Position numbers and translations under genes: made by a program
The notes under the pieces: generated by a model
Databases searched by the model: none
What the model was told of the DNA's origin: nothing
The model's input: only the letters and a program-made list of their open reading frames with translations
Part shown: one piece after another, positions 31,304-58,857 of the stretch
How the letters are laid out: each line of letters starts with the position of its first letter
Numbering within the stretch: position 1 is the stretch's first letter
Origin: a virus
DNA: 64,000 nt
Virus record (IMG/VR): IMGVR_UViG_3300045988_039373
Location: 22,795 to 86,794 of that record
Direction: 5' to 3' (one strand)

Positions 31304-33154
31304 TTACCCCAAATTAAATACGTATTCATAAGTAATTGTTGCAGCATTCTGAGTTATGTTGACTGTAAGCTCCCAACCCTCATCATCGTTTTCTGCTTGC
31401 CTTAATTTAATGGTACCTGACCTTGTTGATTCTACGGTGTTCTCCGTTAAGGTTAAGGTTAACCCATAGTTTCCATTATCACTGGATAGTGTTGTAATGG
31501 CTACATTTGTAACCCAACTTGGTTTTGAAGTTACGGTTAAAGCCAAGGGATATCTTGTACTTACCTCAGAACCATTTATTACCTTAGTCTTAAAAGAATA
31601 AGCTACATCAACTGTAAAGTTATTACCTCCCAAAGCTGACAATCCGGTTCTAGTGGTAGTTCTTGAACCAGTAGGGGAAGTGAATGCCAAGTAATACTTA
31701 TAAGATACTGAAGCAGCACTCTGTGTAACTGTGATTGTCTTAGTAGTTGCCCCACTATAGGATGCAGTTACTACACAGCTTCTACTTGAAGTACCCGAGT
31801 TCTCCGTAGCAGTAAGTACCGTCTTAGCAGCATTCAAACTAAAACCAGTACCACTTGCACTAACCGTAGGTGTAGCACTCTTCGAAGAACCTGCACTTGT
31901 TGACCCTGAACTCCAATGGTTGGTAGTAGGTATACTTACACTGGCATAAATATTAACACTACCTCCTGAATTAGAGATAGAGTATGAACTTGCAAATAAG
32001 CTTATTACTGGTGTACCATCAGTAGTACTGGTAATTTTATTCTCTGCCTGGTATACATCGAGAGTTATAGATTTCGATTTACCATTCAGAGATACAGTAC
32101 AAGTAAGGGAGCCTACCCTTGTTCTAGCCTTTGCAGTAGTTCCCAAAGAACCTGCACTAACTGCAGTACCATAACTAATGCTAGCACCGCTTGTAATTGT
32201 GCCTCCTCCAGTTGTAGAACCATTCCATCCCCAAGTCTGAGAATATGAGGGCATAGTTGAGAATGAACTTCTACTTCCTCCACTTGCAGGTATATCGGAT
32301 ACACTTCCTCCACTTACAGTGATTTCACTATAGGTTCTATAACCTGCAGATTGAGAACAACTGATAGTTAGTTTCTTATTGGTTTCTGCCTGAGTTAATA
32401 CTACACTACCCGACTTTGCCGAAGTAGAAGTATTATTTGCCATAGTTACTGAAGTACCAGTACCGGTAACTCCGGTATTAGCCCTGGTATAACTTAAGGG
32501 AATTTGATTACCATAGGTATGTCCATTTCGGTATTCCTGTTTATAAGAGGTTACAGTAAATGTTTTTGTTCCTCCAGTTGCCCCAAAAGACAGAGAAGTG
32601 GGATTCACTGAGAATGTTTGAGACCAACTTTGAGATGCTGCTGCCTGGGTAAATGTGAATTCCACGGTTTTACCAGATTCAGATTGAGTAGCCAACCCCT
32701 TACCAGACCTTGAGGTTAGGTCTAGATTCCCTGAAGCTTTCCAAGGCTTTCCATCTGCCGGCTTACTATAGTTAGTAATCCAACTTGGTTTACTGTTTAT
32801 TACGTAATTAACACTAACAGCAGACCCATTAGCTACATTATCCCAATATTTCTGCTTCGTACTGGTAAACTCAAAATCAAAATTAGAACTACTGGGGTTA
32901 CCTAAAGCATCAAAACTTATACTGGAGTATCTCAAAGTGAATGTATACTTATAAGTTACCTTATGAATATCTTCGAGTTTAACAGCTTCGTTATTACCAT
33001 AGGAACTAGCATTGGAGATTTCCAAGCCAACGTAACTTTCCCCCGTTCCTGTAGAGGCGAGTGCTAACAATTCAGCCTTGGTAGGGCAGTCATTACCTGT
33101 CTTACCAAGGCCTACTTTAGTTTTGACAGCACTCCATGTTGCTATCTCTCCCAT
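31304..33154 (-). CDS. Ser/Thr-rich multi-BACON/Ig-like domain virion protein (616 aa)
   Basis: Repeated module ends VEFTFTQAAAS, KLTISCSQSAG, KSITLDVYQAEN, KTITVTQSAAS, LTVNITQNAAT. Also KPSWITNY / KPSWVTNV and ...STRSGTIKLRQ. Confidence 0.6.
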   Translation of the reverse strand: MGEIATWSAVKTKVGLGKTGNDCPTKAELLALASTGTGESYVGLEISNASSYGNNEAVKLEDIHKVTYKYTFTLRYSSISFDALGNPSSSNFDFEFTSTKQKYWDNVANGSAVSVNYVINSKPSWITNYSKPADGKPWKASGNLDLTSRSGKGLATQSESGKTVEFTFTQAAASQSWSQTFSVNPTSLSFGATGGTKTFTVTSYKQEYRNGHTYGNQIPLSYTRANTGVTGTGTSVTMANNTSTSAKSGSVVLTQAETNKKLTISCSQSAGYRTYSEITVSGGSVSDIPASGGSRSSFSTMPSYSQTWGWNGSTTGGGTITSGASISYGTAVSAGSLGTTAKARTRVGSLTCTVSLNGKSKSITLDVYQAENKITSTTDGTPVISLFASSYSISNSGGSVNIYASVSIPTTNHWSSGSTSAGSSKSATPTVSASGTGFSLNAAKTVLTATENSGTSSRSCVVTASYSGATTKTITVTQSAASVSYKYYLAFTSPTGSRTTTRTGLSALGGNNFTVDVAYSFKTKVINGSEVSTRYPLALTVTSKPSWVTNVAITTLSSDNGNYGLTLTLTENTVESTRSGTIKLRQAENDDEGWELTVNITQNAATITYEYVFNLG

Positions 33155-52510: not shown

Positions 52511-53248
52511 TTAAGTTGGAGCTACCCAATAAAAATTCAAATCTAATGGATATTTTTTAGTGGGGTTAAACCTACTGGAGAGTATAGGAGTATCACTGCT
52601 AGCAGAGGGAGTTGAAACTTTTGTAAGAGTATAGGAACCCAATCCAGTTGTTTTTGTTGTAAAGTATGAATTACTTGGTAAATTGTAGTTAGGCATAAAA
52701 GCATTACCATTCTTATCGAGGCAGGACCAAGACAACATGTTGAAATTTCCCGGGTACAGGTTAGCAATATAGACATTAATAGCATATCTATTTTGATTTA
52801 CTATCCAATTCTTATTTCTGTTACCATCAGCCATAGATCCACCTTCGCCACTAATATTGGTAGTAACCTTAAAAAAAGCACTCGTGTCTACTCCATTGAT
52901 GGTTATAGGATTAAAATGTATTTCCCAATATTCTTTTTCTTCGGGAGTAGTAAGGTGTAGATTTATTTTATTACCAGATTCATTTTGTGTAAGTATACAA
53001 AGCCCAGAAGTACCGTCATTTCGTGCAGTAATCTGAATACTATTGTTACTCTTGTCTTCCTCCAGAACATAGTCCGGGGTATTGATGCTAGCAGAATAAC
53101 CAACTCCAATAACCCCGGACAATTTGCCATTTACATACTTACTCTTTTGAGATTGTATTGTCCATCTCTCAGAGTTTCCCTGTCTTATTTCTGCATATAC
53201 ATCTTTGGTGGATCCCCCCCCCCCTAATTTAAGAACTTTATTTTCCAT
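52511..53248 (-). CDS. Beta-rich secreted/virion-type protein carrying a G11 tract in codons 9-12
   Basis: MENKVLKLGGGGSTKDVY... ATG verified. Lies downstream of a BACON-like gene. Confidence 0.6.
   Translation of the reverse strand: MENKVLKLGGGGSTKDVYAEIRQGNSERWTIQSQKSKYVNGKLSGVIGVGYSASINTPDYVLEEDKSNNSIQITARNDGTSGLCILTQNESGNKINLHLTTPEEKEYWEIHFNPITINGVDTSAFFKVTTNISGEGGSMADGNRNKNWIVNQNRYAINVYIANLYPGNFNMLSWSCLDKNGNAFMPNYNLPSNSYFTTKTTGLGSYTLTKVSTPSASSDTPILSSRFNPTKKYPLDLNFYWVAPT
53214..53224 (-). repeat. Homopolymer G11 (C11 on the plus strand) inside the 5' end of the coding sequence
   Basis: The plus strand reads gat-ccccccccccc-taat. The coding strand reads TTA GGG GGG GGG GGA TCC. Confidence 0.95.
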
Positions 53249-53262
53249 AATGTATAATGTTT

Positions 53263-54204
53263 TTAGATTGATACTGTTCCTCCTGCACTTGGTACTATAA
53301 ATGACCCCTCTGATATCCAGGTAGCACCCGATTTAGTATATACAGCTACTTTATCTCCAGTAGTACATTCTATTCGAGAACCAGGTTCTGAGTCATTGGC
53401 ATAGAATGGAATCTTCATAGTAGTAGTACTAGTTGCTGAGAGACCCTGTATATACATCTGATCTGAAGATGATGTATTCTGTGGCCTAGCTCCCCTGCCA
53501 AAGAGATAGTAGCCTGTACCTGTGGGCAATCCAGAGAGAGTGAATGTTGAAGCCTGTTGTGGCTTCTGAGTTACTGGTATACTAAGGTTAGCATCCCCAC
53601 AGGTTAAGAAGATATGCCCTGAACGGTTAGCTCCAGTTTGATTACTCGATAAAGCGGTCAGGGATAACATGTAATGGTTCTCAAGAGTATCCACTGGGGC
53701 AACGGATACTGAGCACCAATCGGGAGCATTACCCACATGGGGAGTTTCTGGCTTTTTAGACCCATCACTACCCTTTAAATAGGCCATCACAAGGATTTGA
53801 GCAGTATTATATTTATCACTACCTAAAGGCAATGTGTTTGAAACCATTTTTATGTATCCACTATAGGTTACACCAGCCTTCTGAGTTACTGTGAGATTGA
53901 TTTTGTTATTAGACCCATTTTGGGTAAATGTCAGAGTAGTAGACCTTGAGGACCCAGTATTTTTTGAATAGTTAATTTTTACATCTAAGTAACCATCTCC
54001 AACGGTAACTCCTCCCCAAATAGCCCAACTTACGGAGGCTGAGCCCAAAGTACAAGAGGGTGTAGAGGTTGAAACTACTTTGCCATTTACCAGTTTCCTT
54101 TTGAGGGAAGTGATACGGTAGGTTATAGTACCACCCTCTGAAGATACAGTATCTGTACCTGTATCTGTAATTGCACGTGCTAGTTTGAATAATGTTTCTT
54201 CCAT
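53263..54204 (-). CDS. BACON/Ig-like multi-domain protein (313 aa)
   Basis: SVSWAIWGG...NTGSSRSTTLTFTQNGSNNKINLTVTQKAG and APDWCSVSVAP...GANRSGHIFLTCGDANLSIPVTQKPQ. Confidence 0.6.
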   Translation of the reverse strand: MEETLFKLARAITDTGTDTVSSEGGTITYRITSLKRKLVNGKVVSTSTPSCTLGSASVSWAIWGGVTVGDGYLDVKINYSKNTGSSRSTTLTFTQNGSNNKINLTVTQKAGVTYSGYIKMVSNTLPLGSDKYNTAQILVMAYLKGSDGSKKPETPHVGNAPDWCSVSVAPVDTLENHYMLSLTALSSNQTGANRSGHIFLTCGDANLSIPVTQKPQQASTFTLSGLPTGTGYYLFGRGARPQNTSSSDQMYIQGLSATSTTTMKIPFYANDSEPGSRIECTTGDKVAVYTKSGATWISEGSFIVPSAGGTVSI

Positions 54205-54304: not shown

Positions 54305-54580
54305 ATGAGAAAGTATCAGTATCAGATTTACTACCATACAAGCAGAGGAAGGTACTTCATTAAGATTAGGTATTCCTTCCTGGGATTGGTGTTTTGGCTT
54401 ACACTTAGAGATAAGTATTCGAGTAATATAGAAACCTTCCTTGATAAGGATAAGGCAATTGAAAGGGCAGAAGATTATTTAAGATATTTATACCTAAAGA
54501 GAAAAAATAGTAGGGTGTTAAAGGTTACTGGGAGAATAGATATTACCAGTAGGTTAAAATCAGTGAGGGAGGATTATTAA
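54305..54580 (+). CDS. Hypothetical protein (91 aa)
   Basis: ATG verified. Confidence 0.5.
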   Translation: MRKYQYQIYYHTSRGRYFIKIRYSFLGLVFWLTLRDKYSSNIETFLDKDKAIERAEDYLRYLYLKRKNSRVLKVTGRIDITSRLKSVREDY

Positions 54581-54581
54581 G

Positions 54582-54848
54582 ATGGTGAAGGTTGAAACAA
54601 TTAGGGATGATAATGAAAAGAGGATTCTTAAATGCCAAGAAGATAATCGGATTTGGTATCAGATATGGATTACCCAATTGGATATGAATTGTATAGAAAG
54701 GTACTTTGATGGGTATGGTGAAGTTAAGAGGTGGTGGTTAAGGAATCTTCAACAGTATTATGTTTTCTTTTATGAGAAGAAAGGTGGTAAGGTTCGAGGA
54801 GTTCTTGGGAAAGATAGGACTAAGGATTTAATTCGTGCTATACTTTAA
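54582..54848 (+). CDS. Hypothetical protein (88 aa)
   Basis: ATG verified. Starts 1 nt after the upstream stop. Confidence 0.5.
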   Translation: MVKVETIRDDNEKRILKCQEDNRIWYQIWITQLDMNCIERYFDGYGEVKRWWLRNLQQYYVFFYEKKGGKVRGVLGKDRTKDLIRAIL

Positions 54849-54920
54849 TTAGTTGCCAGAGACCTAACATCCCTGGCTTCTTTGTGTGTTATGTGAGCAT
54901 GTGTGGTTGTGGGATATCTA

Positions 54921-54965
54921 GGTATGCCCTTAATACGAGGTGTCAAAATTTCCTGGTACTAAAAA
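54921..54965 (+). repeat. Direct repeat unit 1 (about 45 bp)
   Basis: GGTATGCCCTTAATACGAGGTGTCAAAATTTCCTGGTACTAAAAA. Confidence 0.75.
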
Positions 54966-54982
54966 TGTGTATTTGTCCTCAA

Positions 54983-55026
54983 GGTACCCCTTAATGTGAG
55001 GGTTTCGAAAGTTGTGGTACTAAAAG
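54983..55026 (+). repeat. Direct repeat unit 2 (about 44 bp, roughly 70% identical to unit 1)
   Basis: GGTACCCCTTAATGTGAGGGTTTCGAAAGTTGTGGTACTAAAAG. Confidence 0.75.
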
Positions 55027-55069
55027 GGGAGTACGGTTCCGTTAAATTTAACATTTAAAAATAAAAAGT

Positions 55070-55097
55070 AAGGGATAAACATTTTTATTTATCCCTT
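55070..55097 (-). terminator. Intrinsic terminator of the AT-rich cassette
   Basis: Perfect 10-bp stem AAGGGATAAA / TTTATCCCTT. On the minus strand it is followed by ACTTTTTATTTTT. Confidence 0.7.
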
Positions 55098-55104
55098 TGC
55101 TTTC

Positions 55105-55401
55105 TTAATTATCTACTAAATGATTATTTAAATTTTCTTTAAATTGTTCATTTAAACAATAACATAAGTATAGTAAAAAAGTTTTAAAAGAAAATTTTTT
55201 ATAAATTGTATATTCAACTTCATTTAAATAGTTCATGCTTATTTGTTCAATCAATAGAAATTGCTCTACATTAATTAATTGAAAAGTTTGCACGTCAATA
55301 ATAGTAGATATTATTCTATGATTTGACTTTAAAAGAATATAAACTACAAATAAAGCACTAACAAAAACAGCTAATAAGATAAAAAACAAAATTAATAACA
55401 T
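55105..55401 (-). CDS. Small membrane protein (98 aa) of the AT-rich island
   Basis: N-terminal TM helix LLILFFILLAVFVSALFVVYILL. ATG verified. Confidence 0.55.
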   Translation of the reverse strand: MLLILFFILLAVFVSALFVVYILLKSNHRIISTIIDVQTFQLINVEQFLLIEQISMNYLNEVEYTIYKKFSFKTFLLYLCYCLNEQFKENLNNHLVDN

Positions 55402-55418
55402 AATAATTTTATTTTTAT

Positions 55419-55446
55419 GATAGGGAGTAAAATTTTACTCCCTATC
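55419..55446. repeat. Perfect 28-bp palindrome GATAGGGAGTAAAATTTTACTCCCTATC between the two island genes
   Basis: Read directly. Could act as an attenuator/terminator hairpin or as an operator. Confidence 0.9.
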
Positions 55447-55455
55447 TGATTTTCT

Positions 55456-55866
55456 TTACTTCATTGATTTTTTCACGATTTCGAGACCTTTTATTAATAT
55501 CTCTTTCTTTTCTTCTTTAGTGTTTTCGCTTGCAATCGAAGAAAAGGAAAAATCATTTAAAACATAGACTTGTTTATAAAAGTCTATAAAACCCTCAATT
55601 AGTTTTTTATCTGCATTGTTTGCAATGGTTGAAAGAAAATTGAAAGTTACGTTTCTAAACTTTTTACGTAACGATTTGATTTGCTTTTCGTTTGCACCCT
55701 CAAAAAGTTCTTTTTTATAAATTTCTGTTTTTGTACCTAAAGAAGTTTTGAAAAGTCCTTGATTTTTTTCTTTTACAGACTTTAAAACGTCTAAAGCAAT
55801 TAAACTATTTGCTTTGCTGTTTGCACTTGCTTTTTCTACACTCACTTTATTAATTTGATTTTTCAT
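55456..55866 (-). CDS. Lys-rich hypothetical protein (136 aa) of the AT-rich island
   Basis: The track start at 55926 is TTG, and the first ATG is at 55866 (MKNQINKVSVEK...). No motif recognised. Confidence 0.55.
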   Translation of the reverse strand: MKNQINKVSVEKASANSKANSLIALDVLKSVKEKNQGLFKTSLGTKTEIYKKELFEGANEKQIKSLRKKFRNVTFNFLSTIANNADKKLIEGFIDFYKQVYVLNDFSFSSIASENTKEEKKEILIKGLEIVKKSMK

Positions 55867-55970
55867 AATAAAAACGCTTGAATATTTTATTATTATTATT
55901 TTATAACCTTTTTGATAGATATTCAAGACTTATTAAACTATCTAATAAGGTTTGTTTCATTTCTATATTG

Positions 55971-56001
55971 CAAATATAAGAACTATTTTTTAATCTACAA
56001 A
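55971..56001 (-). promoter_or_regulatory. Canonical Bacteroidota promoter P1 (TTTG-N19-TATATTTG)
   Basis: The rc reads TTTGtagattaaaaaatagttctTATATTTG. Confidence 0.7.
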
Positions 56002-56076
56002 ATTTTTAGAAAAATATTTTCTTAAAAAGTTTTAATTAAAAATTTATTCAAATATCGCTTTGTTTTTCTCACATTG

Positions 56077-56107
56077 CAAAGATACGAACTTTATTTTAAT
56101 CTACAAA
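56077..56107 (-). promoter_or_regulatory. Duplicated promoter P2 (TTTG-N19-TATCTTTG), 106 bp upstream of P1
   Basis: The rc reads TTTGtagattaaaataaagttcgTATCTTTG. The surrounding ~55 bp is an imperfect direct repeat of the P1 region. Confidence 0.6.
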
Positions 56108-56351
56108 CATTTTCAAGAAAAATTTTTGAGAAAATGAATAATTTTATTTTCAAAATTATTTTTGTGAAAAATTCATAAAATAGAAAATATTGTGCACCCT
56201 AAAAGGACTTAATATTTGCACTTAATTTTGGAGGTTCACAAGGGTAATCTTCGCACGCCTTGTAGTGGGCATATATGATATGTATAAGGATATTCCTATA
56301 TGGCCTATGCCTGTCCTCTAGGAAGTGTGTTATATACCTGTATATTGATAA

Positions 56352-56365
56352 GGCTATTAATGGAC
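56352..56365. promoter_or_regulatory. Dyad-symmetric site GGCTATTAATGGAC (family GGCCAT-WW-ATGG)
   Basis: Embedded in ATAAGGCTATTAATGGACTAAGGT. Confidence 0.5.
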
Positions 56366-56435
56366 TAAGGTGATAAAGAATTAAGGCCCTTAAGATATAT
56401 CCCTCTATAAAAACCCCTTAGTCCTAATTCTATAA

Positions 56436-56449
56436 GGCCATATATGGAC
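56436..56449. promoter_or_regulatory. Dyad-symmetric site GGCCATATATGGAC
   Basis: Embedded in ATAAGGCCATATATGGACTATGGT. The core CCATATATGG is a perfect palindrome. Confidence 0.5.
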
Positions 56450-56519
56450 TATGGTAAGCCTATGGGGAAATGGGTTTCATAGATTAGCCTATAAGGGCTT
56501 ACTAAGTTAGCGTAAGTAA

Positions 56520-56549
56520 AACCCAGATACCTTAGTTAGGCTCTGGGTT
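56520..56549 (-). terminator. Intrinsic terminator after gene 56556-56831
   Basis: The minus strand reads AACCCAGA-gcctaactaaggta-TCTGGGTT followed by TTAC. Confidence 0.65.
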
Positions 56550-56555
56550 AATATA

Positions 56556-56831
56556 TTAATCGAAGTATACCTGAAAGGTTATATACTTGATGTTGAAGGT
56601 AAAATCGGGTTCAATTTCCTCTGGGTCAGGGATTTCGGATGAGAATTCCATAAGGCAATCATCTGTGTTAAGGTAGATAGATATTTCCTTAGCTTTCGAT
56701 TGCATTAGTTCTGGCAATATCGAATCGAATTGTGAAAGTGAATTGGCAATGTAAGATGCCCATGGATAATCCCTAGCGTAATTTACTAAGGTAAGAATGA
56801 TGAGATTTGAAATTTGATTAAGAGCTTTCAT
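56556..56831 (-). CDS. Small acidic protein (91 aa)
   Basis: ATG verified. Lies between two hairpins. Confidence 0.55.
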   Translation of the reverse strand: MKALNQISNLIILTLVNYARDYPWASYIANSLSQFDSILPELMQSKAKEISIYLNTDDCLMEFSSEIPDPEEIEPDFTFNIKYITFQVYFD

Positions 56832-57286: not shown

Positions 57287-57318
57287 ACGTCTATATTTAA
57301 TTAGTTATTATTACAATG

Positions 57319-57350
57319 CAAATATAAATATAATATATTATATATGCAAT
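57319..57350 (-). promoter_or_regulatory. Early-type promoter (ATTGCATAT...N...TATATTTGCAT)
   Basis: -7 box TATATTTG (rc of 57319-57326), and ATTG at rc 57347-57350. The ATG lies 33 nt downstream. Confidence 0.6.
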
Positions 57351-58057
57351 AACCTCAATTGCCTTCGTAGGTTATTAAGGGCCTTGAATTATATTTACCT
57401 TAGTCCTTGAGGCCATGAATGGAGATTGCCATTTACCTTCCCTACCTATAACCTATATTATATAATACCTAATGGTTCTTGGTAATCAAGGTACCCCTAA
57501 ATCACAAAATTGTCCTAGAATACAAAAGTTAATGCTAATATAAATACTAAGCAAATAAATTACAGAGTTACTAGGAATATTACCTAAATATGCCCCTTGA
57601 AGGCCTTAAATCCTATAAACCATTTAGCCCTAAAACCTAATATTTTAATTGCCCAATCACAAATCCGATTACCTTTCCCCAACCAATCTATTATATAATA
57701 GCTATATAAAATGGCTGCTCAGGCAATCGGATTTAGGGGCCATTAATGGTCGGATTTATTTGCCTTTTTAGGCCTTTTTGAGTTTGCCTTTAAAGTGTGT
57801 AGTAGAGCTATATGGTATAGTGGCTATATAGTGAGTTGAGTGGCTTTGTATAGTAGAGGGGTTATCACTTGCCTTGTTTGCCTAAATCCCCAAAACCCCC
57901 GGCGAGGTACCTTGATATATGTATTAGGTATTATTATATTAATAGATGGTATATTAGTTATAGAGGGGATAGGTAGATATTATATTATGTACCTTAGTTA
58001 GCGTTAGTATGATTTTGTTTTATTTTTGTGTTGGGTGGTGTGGGAGGTACCCGGTAT
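57351..58057. other. About 700-bp non-coding tract dense in dyad-symmetric and iterated motifs (candidate origin or regulatory hub)
   Basis: No ORF of 60 aa or more in any frame, and hand-checked ATG-initiated minus-strand ORFs are at most 13 aa. Contains GGCCATGAATGGAG (57411-57424), GGCCATTAATGGTC (57738-57751), the inverted repeat AAATCCGATT (57661-57670) / AATCGGATTT (57725-57734), the palindrome CTATTATATAATAG (57688-57701), and 7 copies of TTGCC. Confidence 0.5.
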
Positions 58058-58509: not shown

Positions 58510-58857
58510 TTATAGTTCGTTGGTTAGTATTCTTATATCGGTAAATTGATTCATATATTCCTCTTCTGAGGATATGTCAAGGCATTTGCATGCTATGTAG
58601 TGGCCGTACATTGATATACCTGTTTGATAGCCTTGGTCTTCGTTTAGGAAGTTAGCTAATGGTATCTTGTCTACTGAGCATATCTTCTGATGACCTGGTA
58701 AGGTTTCTGAATCCGTATATCCTACAAAGTTATAAGTATCAGTGTTATCGGTCAGGATAGCAAATATCTCGATTAGCCAGTTAAAGTCCTCTAGAGGTAC
58801 TCTGTCTAACCATTCCCATCCGATTGGGTATTCGTTTATTGTTATTGTTGGTTTCAT
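58510..58857 (-). CDS. Hypothetical acidic early protein (115 aa)
   Basis: ATG verified. Confidence 0.55.
   Translation of the reverse strand: MKPTITINEYPIGWEWLDRVPLEDFNWLIEIFAILTDNTDTYNFVGYTDSETLPGHQKICSVDKIPLANFLNEDQGYQTGISMYGHYIACKCLDISSEEEYMNQFTDIRILTNEL

Follow-up and report, generated by a model that had tools for sequence, protein, structure and literature searches.

A conserved AT-rich transcription unit of Flanders-like myoviruses, probably a fixed core gene with an exchangeable cargo slot

The AT-rich 1.17-kb segment between positions 55027 and 56199 of the 64,000-nucleotide stretch of viral DNA analysed here (the window) is probably not an inserted island but a fixed transcription unit, inherited vertically in Flanders-like myoviruses and composed of a core gene and an exchangeable cargo slot. 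The parts of the unit recur throughout the family at a syntenic site, both of its genes are under purifying selection, the hairpin between them has evolved by compensatory changes, and the cargo is reassorted. Read on the minus strand, the order would be one to three tandem promoters, a leader of about 100 nt, gene 1, the hairpin, the cargo slot and a bidirectional terminator. The features are the following, in positions of the window.

55020..55027, plus strand: left copy of CTAAAAGG, placed by junction alignment; part of the longer conserved motif GGTACTAAAAGGGGAGTACGG
55060..55097, both strands: predicted bidirectional intrinsic terminator, a hairpin at 55070-55097 plus a T-run, scored on both strands
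55105..55401, minus strand: gene 2 (ORF), 98 aa with an N-terminal transmembrane (TM) anchor; allele A of the hypervariable slot
55419..55446, minus strand: perfect 14+14 palindrome (28 bp), an RNA hairpin, from the repeat scan (I16) and folding
55456..55866, minus strand: gene 1 (ORF), 136 aa, core gene of the unit, orphan family
55867..55964, minus strand: AT-rich 5' leader of gene 1, about 100 nt, estimated from the distance between the -7 box and the ATG
55967..56037, minus strand: P2, proximal copy of the promoter repeat unit, from the direct repeat and a consensus match
P2 boxes, minus strand: -33 TTTG at 56001-55998 and -7 TATATTTG at 55978-55971, matching TTTG-N19-TAnnTTTG
56073..56143, minus strand: P1, distal copy of the 71-nt promoter repeat unit, from direct repeat D2 and a consensus match
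P1 boxes, minus strand: -33 TTTG at 56107-56104 and -7 TATCTTTG at 56084-56077, matching TTTG-N19-TAnnTTTG
56199..56206, plus strand: right copy of CTAAAAGG, inside a polymorphic 11-12-bp indel (ACCCTAAAA(A)GG)

Composition and Content of the Segment

The GC content is 0.17-0.27 over 54950-56300 against about 0.33-0.42 elsewhere (about 36% overall), and no other 1-kb bin of the window is as low as that of the segment. Gene 1 has a GC3 of 0.23 and gene 2 one of 0.12, compared with 0.33 +/- 0.05 for 46 other ORFs. A preliminary description of this DNA had called the segment far more AT-rich than the rest, and both measures bear this out. Its inventory also stands: the two minus-strand ORFs encode a Lys-rich 136-aa protein and a 98-aa single-TM protein, neither of which has a Pfam or PHROG match, in line with the lack of recognisable motifs that it reported; a 28-bp perfect palindrome lies between the genes; and the predicted host-type promoters and terminator would make the segment a self-contained unit, as it had proposed.

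The extreme AT-richness is left unexplained by the model of a fixed unit, especially the cargo GC3 of 0.12 and the low GC of all cargo alleles. In the lineages without cargo the GC of gene 1 is near average, and the composition may date from an ancient acquisition of the cargo region from a foreign source. Divergence of the segment among relatives is 8-9%, and the idea of a raised local nucleotide diversity was rejected, since this value falls inside the range of its neighbourhood (3-16%). An Rfam scan of 54.0-58.6 kb gave nothing credible.

The Phage and Its Relatives

The domains found in the window are sheath, baseplate J, tape measure, BACON, DnaB, Toprim and helicase, and the related contigs measure 84-87 kb. 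According to the part of the published description used here, the genomes of the candidate family 'Flandersviridae' are collinear with a median size of 85.2 kb and carry a sheath/baseplate/BACON block, a DnaB/DnaG/PolA block and a locus of about 20 kb with unknown ORFs; the hosts are Bacteroides and Parabacteroides, and Flanders-like phages are reported from human gut viromes at about the same frequency as crAss-like phages (Benler et al. 2021, PMC8008677). That part of the description does not mention the AT-rich unit (PMC8008677). The window and its relatives are like this family, as far as it is described there, in size, collinear layout and domain content, the match being one of layout and domains. 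We infer that the phage of the window is Flanders-like, about 85 kb in size and Bacteroidota-infecting, the promoter type and the BACON domains being what points to the host. A search with the sheath protein against an annotated phage collection returned only three distant records.

To the extent that they are informative, all relatives carry the segment. The island, with collinear junctions, was found in 52/52 informative loci fetched via the right-flank ORF and in 63/63 fetched via a gene 2.3 kb away, an independent flank; an empty site was seen in none of these 115 relatives. Sister and distant lineages, in which gene 1 identity drops to 27-49%, have the unit at the syntenic site as well. 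In the sister lineage (49% amino acid identity in gene 1) the same AT-rich unit with tandem promoters is found at the same site, and in the distant lineages (27-43%) gene 1 is preceded by a long non-coding gap and bordered on its other side by a divergent small-gene block, which is followed by muramidase and DNA methylase genes.

Gene 1 Is the Constant Part of the Unit

Gene 1 encodes a basic, helical protein with 25 Lys and a pI of 9.7. Its family comprises 2313 clusters at 90% identity and 141 at 50%, is seen, among informative contigs, only on Flanders-like myovirus contigs of about 82-88 kb, and is always found at the same syntenic site behind one to three copies of the promoter unit. The dN/dS of 0.10 (dS 0.42) indicates strong purifying selection, and a motif is kept across 64 diverse members of the family. 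The AlphaFold model of gene 1 has a pLDDT of 81.6, and the blocks between residue 51 and the C-terminal end average at least 90, so that the core is predicted with confidence to be helical.

Gene 1 has no relative in Pfam, PHROG, NCBIfam, PADLOC or the PDB. The best hit of its profile among PDB sequences was a designed helical protein with an E-value of 0.16, which is not meaningful, and the best Foldseek hit in the PDB had an E-value of 2.2; against BFVD, Foldseek returned only two uncharacterised Myoviridae MAG proteins, themselves members of the family. Neither megablast of the region nor tblastn of gene 1 gave a match in the annotated phage collection, a broad-alignment search of viral contigs (A2) returned only the same phage, and a related-locus search with P0128 found nothing. 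An NCBIfam 'MutS' match was confined to one probably chimeric member, P0132, in which a MutS fragment is fused to a gene-1-like sequence, and was set aside as not being a property of the family.

Promoters and Leader

The P1 and P2 boxes span 56107-56077 and 56001-55971 on the minus strand and are spaced 106 bp apart. Their TTTG / TAnnTTTG consensus is that of the Bacteroidota sigma-ABfr (PMC7366714). Transcription from P2 would start near 55964, and the 5' leader that follows is not significantly stable when folded (z = -1.8). A strict promoter match lies within 400 nt upstream of gene 1 in all 74 unique close relatives, of which 7 have one copy, 49 two and 18 three, and the sister and distant lineages have one or two strict matches upstream of gene 1. 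Across the window the strict pattern is not enriched (4 matches, 2.7 expected); the significance of the promoters comes from their conservation in relatives and not from their frequency in the window. A scan for sigma-70-type promoters was uninformative for a Bacteroidota host.

The island is not the sole unit with such a promoter, an idea that we rejected: similar TAT[AC]TTTGCA -7 boxes, AT-rich upstream, head five other blocks of small genes at 57326, 60407, 60944, 61834 and 63956. No such box in an AT-rich context was found among the structural and replication modules (1-54 kb). Judging from these promoter motifs, the unit may be read early in infection by unmodified host RNA polymerase, and it may be the last of an early small-gene region whose operons share the TAT[AC]TTTGCA -7 box.

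Hairpin, Cargo Slot and Terminator

The palindrome lies directly past the stop codon of gene 1 and has no U-tract on the sense strand. The RNA fold of the hairpin is significantly stable (z = -4.9). A hairpin of differing sequence occupies this position in 7 of the 8 sister and distant loci that were folded, the exception being L165 with only a weak 6-bp stem (-5.1 kcal/mol), and nearly all close variants have one as well. The stem carries two-sided compensatory changes, for example GGG/CCC to AGG/CCT, as read from folds of each sequence and not from a formal count of pairs, a single MAFFT alignment having lost register. The hairpin might stabilise or partly terminate the message of gene 1, which would then be expressed above the cargo. 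As an alternative, the palindrome could be bound by a protein at the DNA level.

The slot lies between the conserved hairpin and the terminator. Its occupant in the window, gene 2, has uncharged, hydrophobic residues 2-24 and 1646 near-identical clusters, which on informative contigs belong to phage contigs of about 84-87 kb, and is under purifying selection (dN/dS 0.31). Its AlphaFold model is unreliable (pLDDT 55) and too poor for a structure search. Among 104 close loci, alleles A, B, C and D fill the slot in 50, 5, 21 and 27 loci, respectively. These alleles are small transmembrane proteins that are mutually non-homologous and scattered over the sequence clusters of gene 1, and comparison of the loci demonstrates their reassortment among near-identical phages by recombination. 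The other cargo found consists of a 203-aa soluble protein, a 102-aa TM protein, a 32-aa TM protein and a set of 91+88+38 aa; the sister lineages carry other cargo and the distant L165 and L167 none. All cargo alleles have 20-25% GC. The N-terminal hydrophobic segment of gene 2 is also present in alleles B, C and D and in the 102-aa and 32-aa cargo, and some alleles contain small hydrophobic peptides of 32-42 aa. Gene 1, gene 2 and five further cargo proteins all lack a match in PADLOC, Pfam, NCBIfam and PHROG.

The unit is closed by the terminator, which also faces the convergent plus-strand ORFs at 54305-54848. It is predicted from a 12-bp stem with the tail ACTTTTTATT on the minus strand and a 10-bp stem with the tail TGCTTTCTTA on the plus strand. 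As part of the island it is 86-97% identical among relatives, and a strong hairpin with a T-run is found downstream in 74/74 unique loci.

Possible Roles and Known Systems

Argued from context, gene 1 could be a core factor in host takeover or regulation, most likely one that binds nucleic acid or the transcription machinery, and the cargo proteins may act at the cell membrane in conflict between phages or between phage and host. Superinfection exclusion is our leading guess for the cargo; it would account for the maintenance of several alleles within one population of phages. A bolder version, which we regard as a long shot, is that gene 1 represents a new class of early proteins, shared across the family and acting on the Bacteroidota nucleoid or the sigma-ABfr polymerase, and that the slot is a 'mating-type'-like exclusion locus. 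If this were true, the hairpin-bounded slot would be a site of cassette exchange with a balanced polymorphism of membrane peptides that decides which co-circulating strains superinfect one cell, and the genome's strongest host-type promoter module would drive an exclusion locus in one of the commonest groups of gut phages.

Morons, described in the lambdoid phages HK97 and HK022 by Juhala, Hendrix and colleagues, are said to be extra genes of odd composition with their own promoter and terminator; they reportedly have no role in the conserved modules, and their presence varies between collinear genomes. The composition of the segment is unlike that of the flanking genes (GC 0.17-0.27 against about 0.36), and it has putative promoters of its own (74/74 unique close loci) and a predicted intrinsic terminator. 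The whole island and gene 1 are always present, and the gene 2 slot is variable. The slot fits all these features of morons, whereas the unit, with its fixed gene 1 and promoters, is not optional. Unlike lambdoid morons, the cargo uses the same promoter as a core gene and is swapped as hairpin-plus-gene cassettes instead of being simply present or absent. The evidence supports a moron-like accessory slot, and the accessory membrane gene of the preliminary description survives in this form, limited to the second gene.

In the early operon of phage T7, gene 0.3 (ocr) is the first gene behind the tandem host promoters A1-A3, the early terminator TE ends the operon, and host RNA polymerase transcribes it. 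The unit resembles it in its predicted tandem strong host-type promoters, its short operon of small, putatively host-interacting genes and its discrete putative terminator. It differs in that there is no kinship in sequence or fold, gene 1 is basic, unlike the acidic DNA mimic Ocr, and, in contrast to T7, no recognisable phage RNA polymerase is found in the window. The T4 proteins Imm, Sp and RI are small membrane proteins of superinfection exclusion or lysis timing, of about 80-100 aa with a single N-terminal anchor. Gene 2 is similar in size, in its N-terminal anchor and in its location in a predicted early-type unit; it has no detectable homology to them, and here one and the same phage population contains several unrelated alleles.

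The region of about 20 kb that holds the unit in Flanders-like phages is without functional annotation. The analysis contributes the promoter-to-terminator unit, the orphan family (141 clusters at 50%) and the slot with its alleles reshuffled among near-identical genomes. Unit and slot together give a handle on early expression and on strain-level competition in uncultured phages, the promoter module and terminator are candidates for strong, compact Bacteroidota expression parts, and the cargo allele can be used as a strain marker in metagenomes.

Alternative Explanations

The unit, or its cargo end, may have been acquired long ago from an AT-rich donor, with AT-rich cargo imported repeatedly from a shared pool. 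We consider this unlikely, although several observations fit: GC3 lies far below that of the genome, each of the non-homologous cargo alleles is AT-rich, and the cargo-less distant lineages have a gene 1 of about genome-average GC, as would follow from insertion of cargo after the family diverged. No donor was found, however, the informative homologues of gene 1 and gene 2 being on phage contigs of about 82-88 kb, and gene 1 identities down to 27% imply time enough for GC to drift unless AT-richness is selected.

The AT-rich tract with its 106-bp repeats could instead be, or double as, a replication origin, an unwinding region or a packaging/assembly-break site. Cumulative GC skew reaches its lowest point near 51-54 kb, minus-strand genes on the two sides of the island are opposite in skew sign, tandem repeats lie in the 1-kb stretch with the highest AT content of the window, and many assemblies of about 85 kb break at 55.4-58.8 kb. 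Against this, complete promoter boxes lie within the repeats at a constant spacing from a conserved ORF, purifying selection acts on both ORFs, and the breaks are spread over several positions, as would result from strain variation or low coverage. This explanation is very unlikely.

A toxin-antitoxin or abortive-infection pair, with gene 2 as a membrane toxin neutralised by gene 1 or by an antisense RNA, is harder still to credit. The genes are adjacent and presumably co-transcribed, and the 32-42-aa hydrophobic peptides of some alleles are like type I toxins in size. Yet gene 1 is kept next to at least four unrelated partners and, in L165 and L167, without any, neither PADLOC nor Pfam gave a match, and no plus-strand TAnnTTTG box that could drive an antisense RNA was found inside 55028-56150. 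The toxin-antitoxin module suggested in the preliminary description is thus improbable, as gene 1 stays in place where gene 2 is missing or replaced by non-homologous genes.

That the whole 1.17-kb segment is a recent mobile moron or transposon-like insertion with an 8-bp target duplication (CTAAAAGG) is almost certainly wrong: the exact 8-mer on both sides, the sharp shift of composition at both ends and the putative promoter and terminator of its own are outweighed by occupancy in 115/115 informative relatives, by the same location where gene 1 is only 27-49% identical, and by the state of the 8-mers in relatives. No terminal inverted repeats pair the ends of the island, its two ORFs (no Pfam/PHROG match) include no transposase or integrase, and no other copy of the island was found in the window. 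The check that the preliminary description had put forward, a search for the island in bacterial genomes or for an empty site in relatives, yielded neither, except for a stray contig of 659 bp, the sole match among 185,579 bacterial and archaeal species genomes (GTDB). The mobile island therefore does not stand, as the boundaries are the same in all informative relatives, none of these has an empty site and the left 8-mer belongs to a longer conserved motif, which is the outcome that the preliminary description itself had named as refuting it. A sharp compositional trough with a short flanking repeat is insufficient to call a mobile island, and the fixed unit with an exchangeable cargo slot is the reading that we retain.

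Both copies of the 8-bp repeat do flank the island immediately, as had been noted. CTAAAAGG occurs 3 times in the window (3.9 expected), and random placement of two boundary zones 1171 bp apart gives a shared 8-mer in 0.5-8% of cases, according to the tolerance. Of 55 relatives, about 22 lack the right 8-mer and about 20 have CTAAAAAGG in its place; it is exact only in the window and 7 loci. The likeness to a target-site duplication is lost with a right copy that is missing or altered in most relatives and a left copy that is part of a longer motif, and by this comparison the flanking repeat is coincidental. The flanks had also been said to resemble the tract at 57.35-58.06 kb, which holds for short shared motifs (D5, D10, D14, I1) and no further. 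Left of the island, GGTACTAAA recurs at 54955 inside a 40-bp tandem motif (repeat D4).

The Phage and Its AT-Rich Unit

The window is from a very abundant phage. Its gene content, together with the circular relatives of ~85 kb, matches the candidate family 'Flandersviridae' when compared with the published description (PMC8008677), which gives 85.2 kb as the median genome size, describes a structural block followed by a DnaB/DnaG/PolA block and then about 20 kb of unknown ORFs, and assigns Bacteroides and Parabacteroides as hosts by CRISPR spacers. The unit thus belongs to a family of gut phages that is abundant though uncultured, and one of its genes defines a clear-cut orphan protein family.

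Gene content of the window
1-10.5 kb: helicase, Toprim primase-like protein, DnaB helicase
11-54 kb: baseplate J, tape measure, tail sheath, capsid protein, 2054-aa fibre-like protein, BACON-domain proteins
From 56.5 kb on: small ORFs without matches

BACON proteins are found at 31304-33154, in the structural block, and at 52511-54204, just downstream of the unit, where a 313-aa protein with two BACON repeats (E = 1e-13) is adjoined by a 245-aa ORF. They are in line with the carbohydrate-binding domains described for gut Bacteroidota phages.

The AT-rich segment with host-type promoters, terminator, palindrome and two genes, reported in the preliminary description, was largely confirmed in the window sequence. 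In 300-nt windows the GC content was 0.17-0.27 across ~54950-56300 versus 0.33-0.42 around it, and 55001-56000 (0.234) was the lowest of the 64 one-kb bins. Since GC3 was 0.23 in gene 1 and 0.12 in gene 2, below the 0.33 +/- 0.05 of 46 other ORFs, the low GC is not merely an effect of amino-acid composition.

Features of the unit
55866-55456, minus strand: gene 1, ORF of 136 aa counted from ATG
55401-55105, minus strand: gene 2, ORF of 98 aa
55967-56037 and 56073-56143: two copies of a 71-nt repeat unit, 106 bp apart (direct-repeat search)
56001-55971 and 56107-56077, minus strand: TTTG-N19-TAnnTTTG, one per 71-nt copy (pattern match)
55419-55446: perfect 14+14 intergenic palindrome (inverted-repeat search)
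55070-55097, both strands: hairpin with T-run (intrinsic terminator score)
55020-55027 and 56199-56206: 8-mer CTAAAAGG flanking the unit

The Unit Is Fixed in Relatives and Lacks a Target-Site Duplication

The preliminary description had interpreted the segment as a candidate mobile moron. Relatives were fetched via two flanking genes, which made the sample independent of the unit: the 91-aa ORF 56556-56831 gave 55 loci and the 115-aa ORF 58510-58857 gave 80. The site was occupied in 52/52 and 63/63, respectively, of the loci extending far enough, all loci without the unit ending short of its position, and the junctions were collinear with both flanks. In a sister lineage whose gene 1 protein is 49% identical, the same AT-rich unit lies at the same site, with tandem promoters again in a promoter region of 75-79% DNA identity. 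In three more distant lineages (27-43% identical), gene 1 lies between a long non-coding gap and a divergent small-gene block, beyond which are muramidase and DNA methylase genes. When 185,579 bacterial and archaeal species were scanned (one genome each), the sole match was a contig of 659 bp from an assembly of Atlantibacter, apparently carry-over.

The 8-bp repeat had been likened to a target-site duplication. CTAAAAGG occurs 3 times in the window (3.9 expected). When pairs of boundary zones were placed at random in this window, 1171 bp from each other, they had some 8-mer in common in 0.5% of cases for 20-nt zones, rising to 8% for 60-nt zones. Both junctions were aligned across about 50 related contigs. 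The right copy falls within an 11-12-bp indel, which about 22 relatives lack (GTGC|ACTTAAT); about 20 have ACCCTAAAAAGG there, and only 7 show the form of the window. The left copy is embedded in the longer conserved motif GGTACTAAAAGGGGAGTACGG, the first half of which recurs 61 bp upstream, inside a 40-bp tandem motif. Because of this alignment the 8-mer is not a target-site duplication, and the repeat search found no inverted repeat pairing the two ends of the unit.

The features of the preliminary description are thus real, but a mobile island is refuted: the unit is present in every informative relative at the same syntenic site, in the sister and distant lineages too, an outcome which that description had itself named as speaking against insertion. 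The unit is fixed, syntenic and self-contained.

Gene 1 Is the Conserved Core of the Unit

Gene 1 encodes a protein of pI 9.7 with 25 Lys; an upstream TTG gives a 156-aa reading used by a few database entries. The search returned 2313 clusters at 90% identity, the best 120 being at least 93% identical to gene 1 and many of them on 84-87-kb contigs; at 50% identity the family comprises 141 clusters (exhaustive HMMER search). Most members with size-informative contigs are on 76-89 kb and a few on 102-163 kb. An alignment of 64 diverse members has in common the pattern IYK..F..EKK..R.K.R...F..FYK..Y..NDYS..S.CS. The family gave nothing beyond noise against Pfam, PHROGs, NCBIfam and PADLOC, and its profile found no PDB sequence. 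The AlphaFold model (mean pLDDT 81.6, with averages of at least 90 in the blocks of 10 residues from 51 on) is a compact helical domain with a low-confidence N-terminal helix; it had no neighbour among PDB structures, and its only neighbours in BFVD were two uncharacterised 'Myoviridae sp.' proteins.

With a dN/dS of 0.10 among close relatives (dS 0.42), the protein is, on this estimate, under strong constraint, and gene 1 is the core, constrained first gene of the unit. Its basic charge, conserved K/R helix, family-wide fixation and strong promoters suggest a nucleic-acid-binding or polymerase-binding protein that would act in host takeover or regulation.

The dS of gene 1 is roughly fourfold higher than in the adjacent ORF 56556-56831 of 91 aa (0.096) and in gene 2 allele A (0.079), but its total nucleotide divergence does not stand out in the region. 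The cause may be old alleles that recombination has kept, or a bias of the estimator in AT-rich codons. One 215-aa protein from the homologue search (P0132) is MutS-fragment-like over its N-terminal ~100 residues and has a C-terminus identical to gene 1 of the sister-lineage type; this is the product either of a chimeric assembly or of an insertion beside a bacterial mutS gene.

The Second Position Is an Exchange Site

Gene 2 gave 1646 clusters. In close relatives, the stretch from hairpin to terminator holds one of four genes that are unrelated to each other.

Cargo alleles in 104 loci
Allele A: 98 aa, the type in the window, 50 loci
Allele B: 96 aa, 5 loci
Allele C: 42 aa, 21 loci
Allele D: 35 aa, 27 loci

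All four have an N-terminal hydrophobic segment and a GC of 20-25%. The alleles are dispersed across the sequence clusters of gene 1 and have therefore been reassorted by recombination; the hairpin class tracks the cargo type, which places the exchange points upstream of the hairpin. Cargo in the sister lineages is a 203-aa soluble protein, a 32-aa peptide or an anchored protein of 102 aa, which aligns with allele A over 78 residues at 21% identity (E = 0.001). One distant lineage has three small soluble ORFs and two have no cargo. None of these cargo proteins had a match in the databases searched, PADLOC among them. The structure model of allele A was unreliable; its dN/dS of 0.31 indicates purifying selection.

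The second position is thus a site where accessory genes, most of them encoding small membrane proteins, are exchanged; this upholds the earlier proposal of an accessory small membrane protein. The allelic polymorphism within one population suggests that the cargo may act in conflict at the membrane, superinfection exclusion being the most favoured guess. All cargo is extremely AT-rich and gene 1 moderately so, and in the cargo-less lineages the GC of gene 1 is near average; an old foreign origin of the cargo end and AT selection in the unit would both fit.

Just after the stop codon of gene 1, every lineage examined has a stable stem-loop, except one (locus L165, a weak 6-bp stem). As RNA, the 55419-55446 palindrome folds at -18.8 kcal/mol (z = -4.9). 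Hairpin sequences differ between lineages (GATAGGGAGTAAAA/TTTTACTCCCTATC, GAGTAGGGAAAT/ATTTCCCTACTC, TAGAGAAACGTTTCA/TGAAACGTTTCTCTA, TAGGAAAGGGAAAA/TTTTCCCTTTCCTA), and within classes there are two-sided stem changes (GGG/CCC to AGG/CCT, GAGT/ACTC to GAAT/ATTC, GGG/CCC to GAG/CTC) and paired insertions; one variant has a G-U wobble on the sense strand. The sense strand has no U-tract after the hairpin where cargo follows, and a U-rich tail in the cargo-less locus L167. The hairpin may be the original end-of-gene structure; its present role is probably to stabilise the message of gene 1 or to attenuate read-through.

Promoters

Both promoter boxes agree with the Bacteroidota primary sigma consensus (-33 TTTG, -7 TAnnTTTG; PMC7366714). 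On the minus strand, TAT[AC]TTTGCA preceded by AT-rich sequence is found at 55978 and 56084 in the unit, and in the same context at 57326, 60407, 60944, 61834 and 63956, each heading a small-ORF block; none was found at 1-54 kb. The strict two-box pattern is not enriched across the whole window; it lies upstream of gene 1 in 74/74 unique close loci (one copy in 7, two in 49, three in 18), and a promoter match was found there in 2/3 distant lineages. From the sequence, the best and most repeated predicted promoter module is that of the unit. The boxes at the small-ORF blocks and the pattern in 74/74 loci make the unit look like the last operon of a host-polymerase region, presumably expressed early by that polymerase. 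No plus-strand -7 box was found inside the unit, which gives no support for an antisense RNA. The whole would be an early phage unit whose accessory slot is moron-like, a kind already known.

Neighbouring Sequences and Contig Ends

The non-coding tracts 54849-55027, 56199-56555 and 57287-58057 have short motifs in common, e.g. CAAGGTACCCCTTAAT. AGGTACC occurs 23 times in the window (6.8 +/- 2.8 expected), 7/23 within these tracts, and the 40-bp motif CCCTTAAT..GAGG..GGTACTAAAA is in tandem at 54927-55025. Rfam gave nothing on these tracts, and the motifs may be regulatory sites specific to the phage. At 56209-56235, on the right edge of the unit, GCACTTAAT[AT]TTT forms a micro-tandem repeat of 1 to 3 copies in relatives (one in L054, three in L024).

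The plus-strand ORFs at 54305-54848 (91 and 88 aa), convergent with the unit, are covered in only about 30-58/135 related loci and are therefore variable accessory genes themselves. Their coding strand is extremely G-rich (GC skew 0.46-0.64). The cumulative GC skew has its minimum at about 51-54 kb. On their coding strand, minus-strand genes show C>G at 56.5-64 kb and the opposite at 1-50 kb. This is more suggestive of a replication origin near 51-55 kb than of transcription-driven skew.

About a third of the near-complete ~85-kb assemblies end within the equivalent of 55.4-58.8 kb, far above random circle breaks (contigs >80 kb: L005, L015, L021, L024, L027, L033, L035, L039, L046, L053). The breaks probably stem from differences between strains in the cargo slot and in the number of promoter copies, or from poor coverage of AT-rich DNA; the ends could also mark a real genome end. 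Two ~170-kb 'viral genomes', IMGVR_UViG_3300045988_026304 (170 kb; L032/L063/L145) and IMGVR_UViG_3300007641_000009 (168 kb; L044/L161), each carry a pair of differing gene 1 alleles separated by about 86 kb; rather than single genomes, they appear to be two distinct Flanders-like genomes joined end to end.
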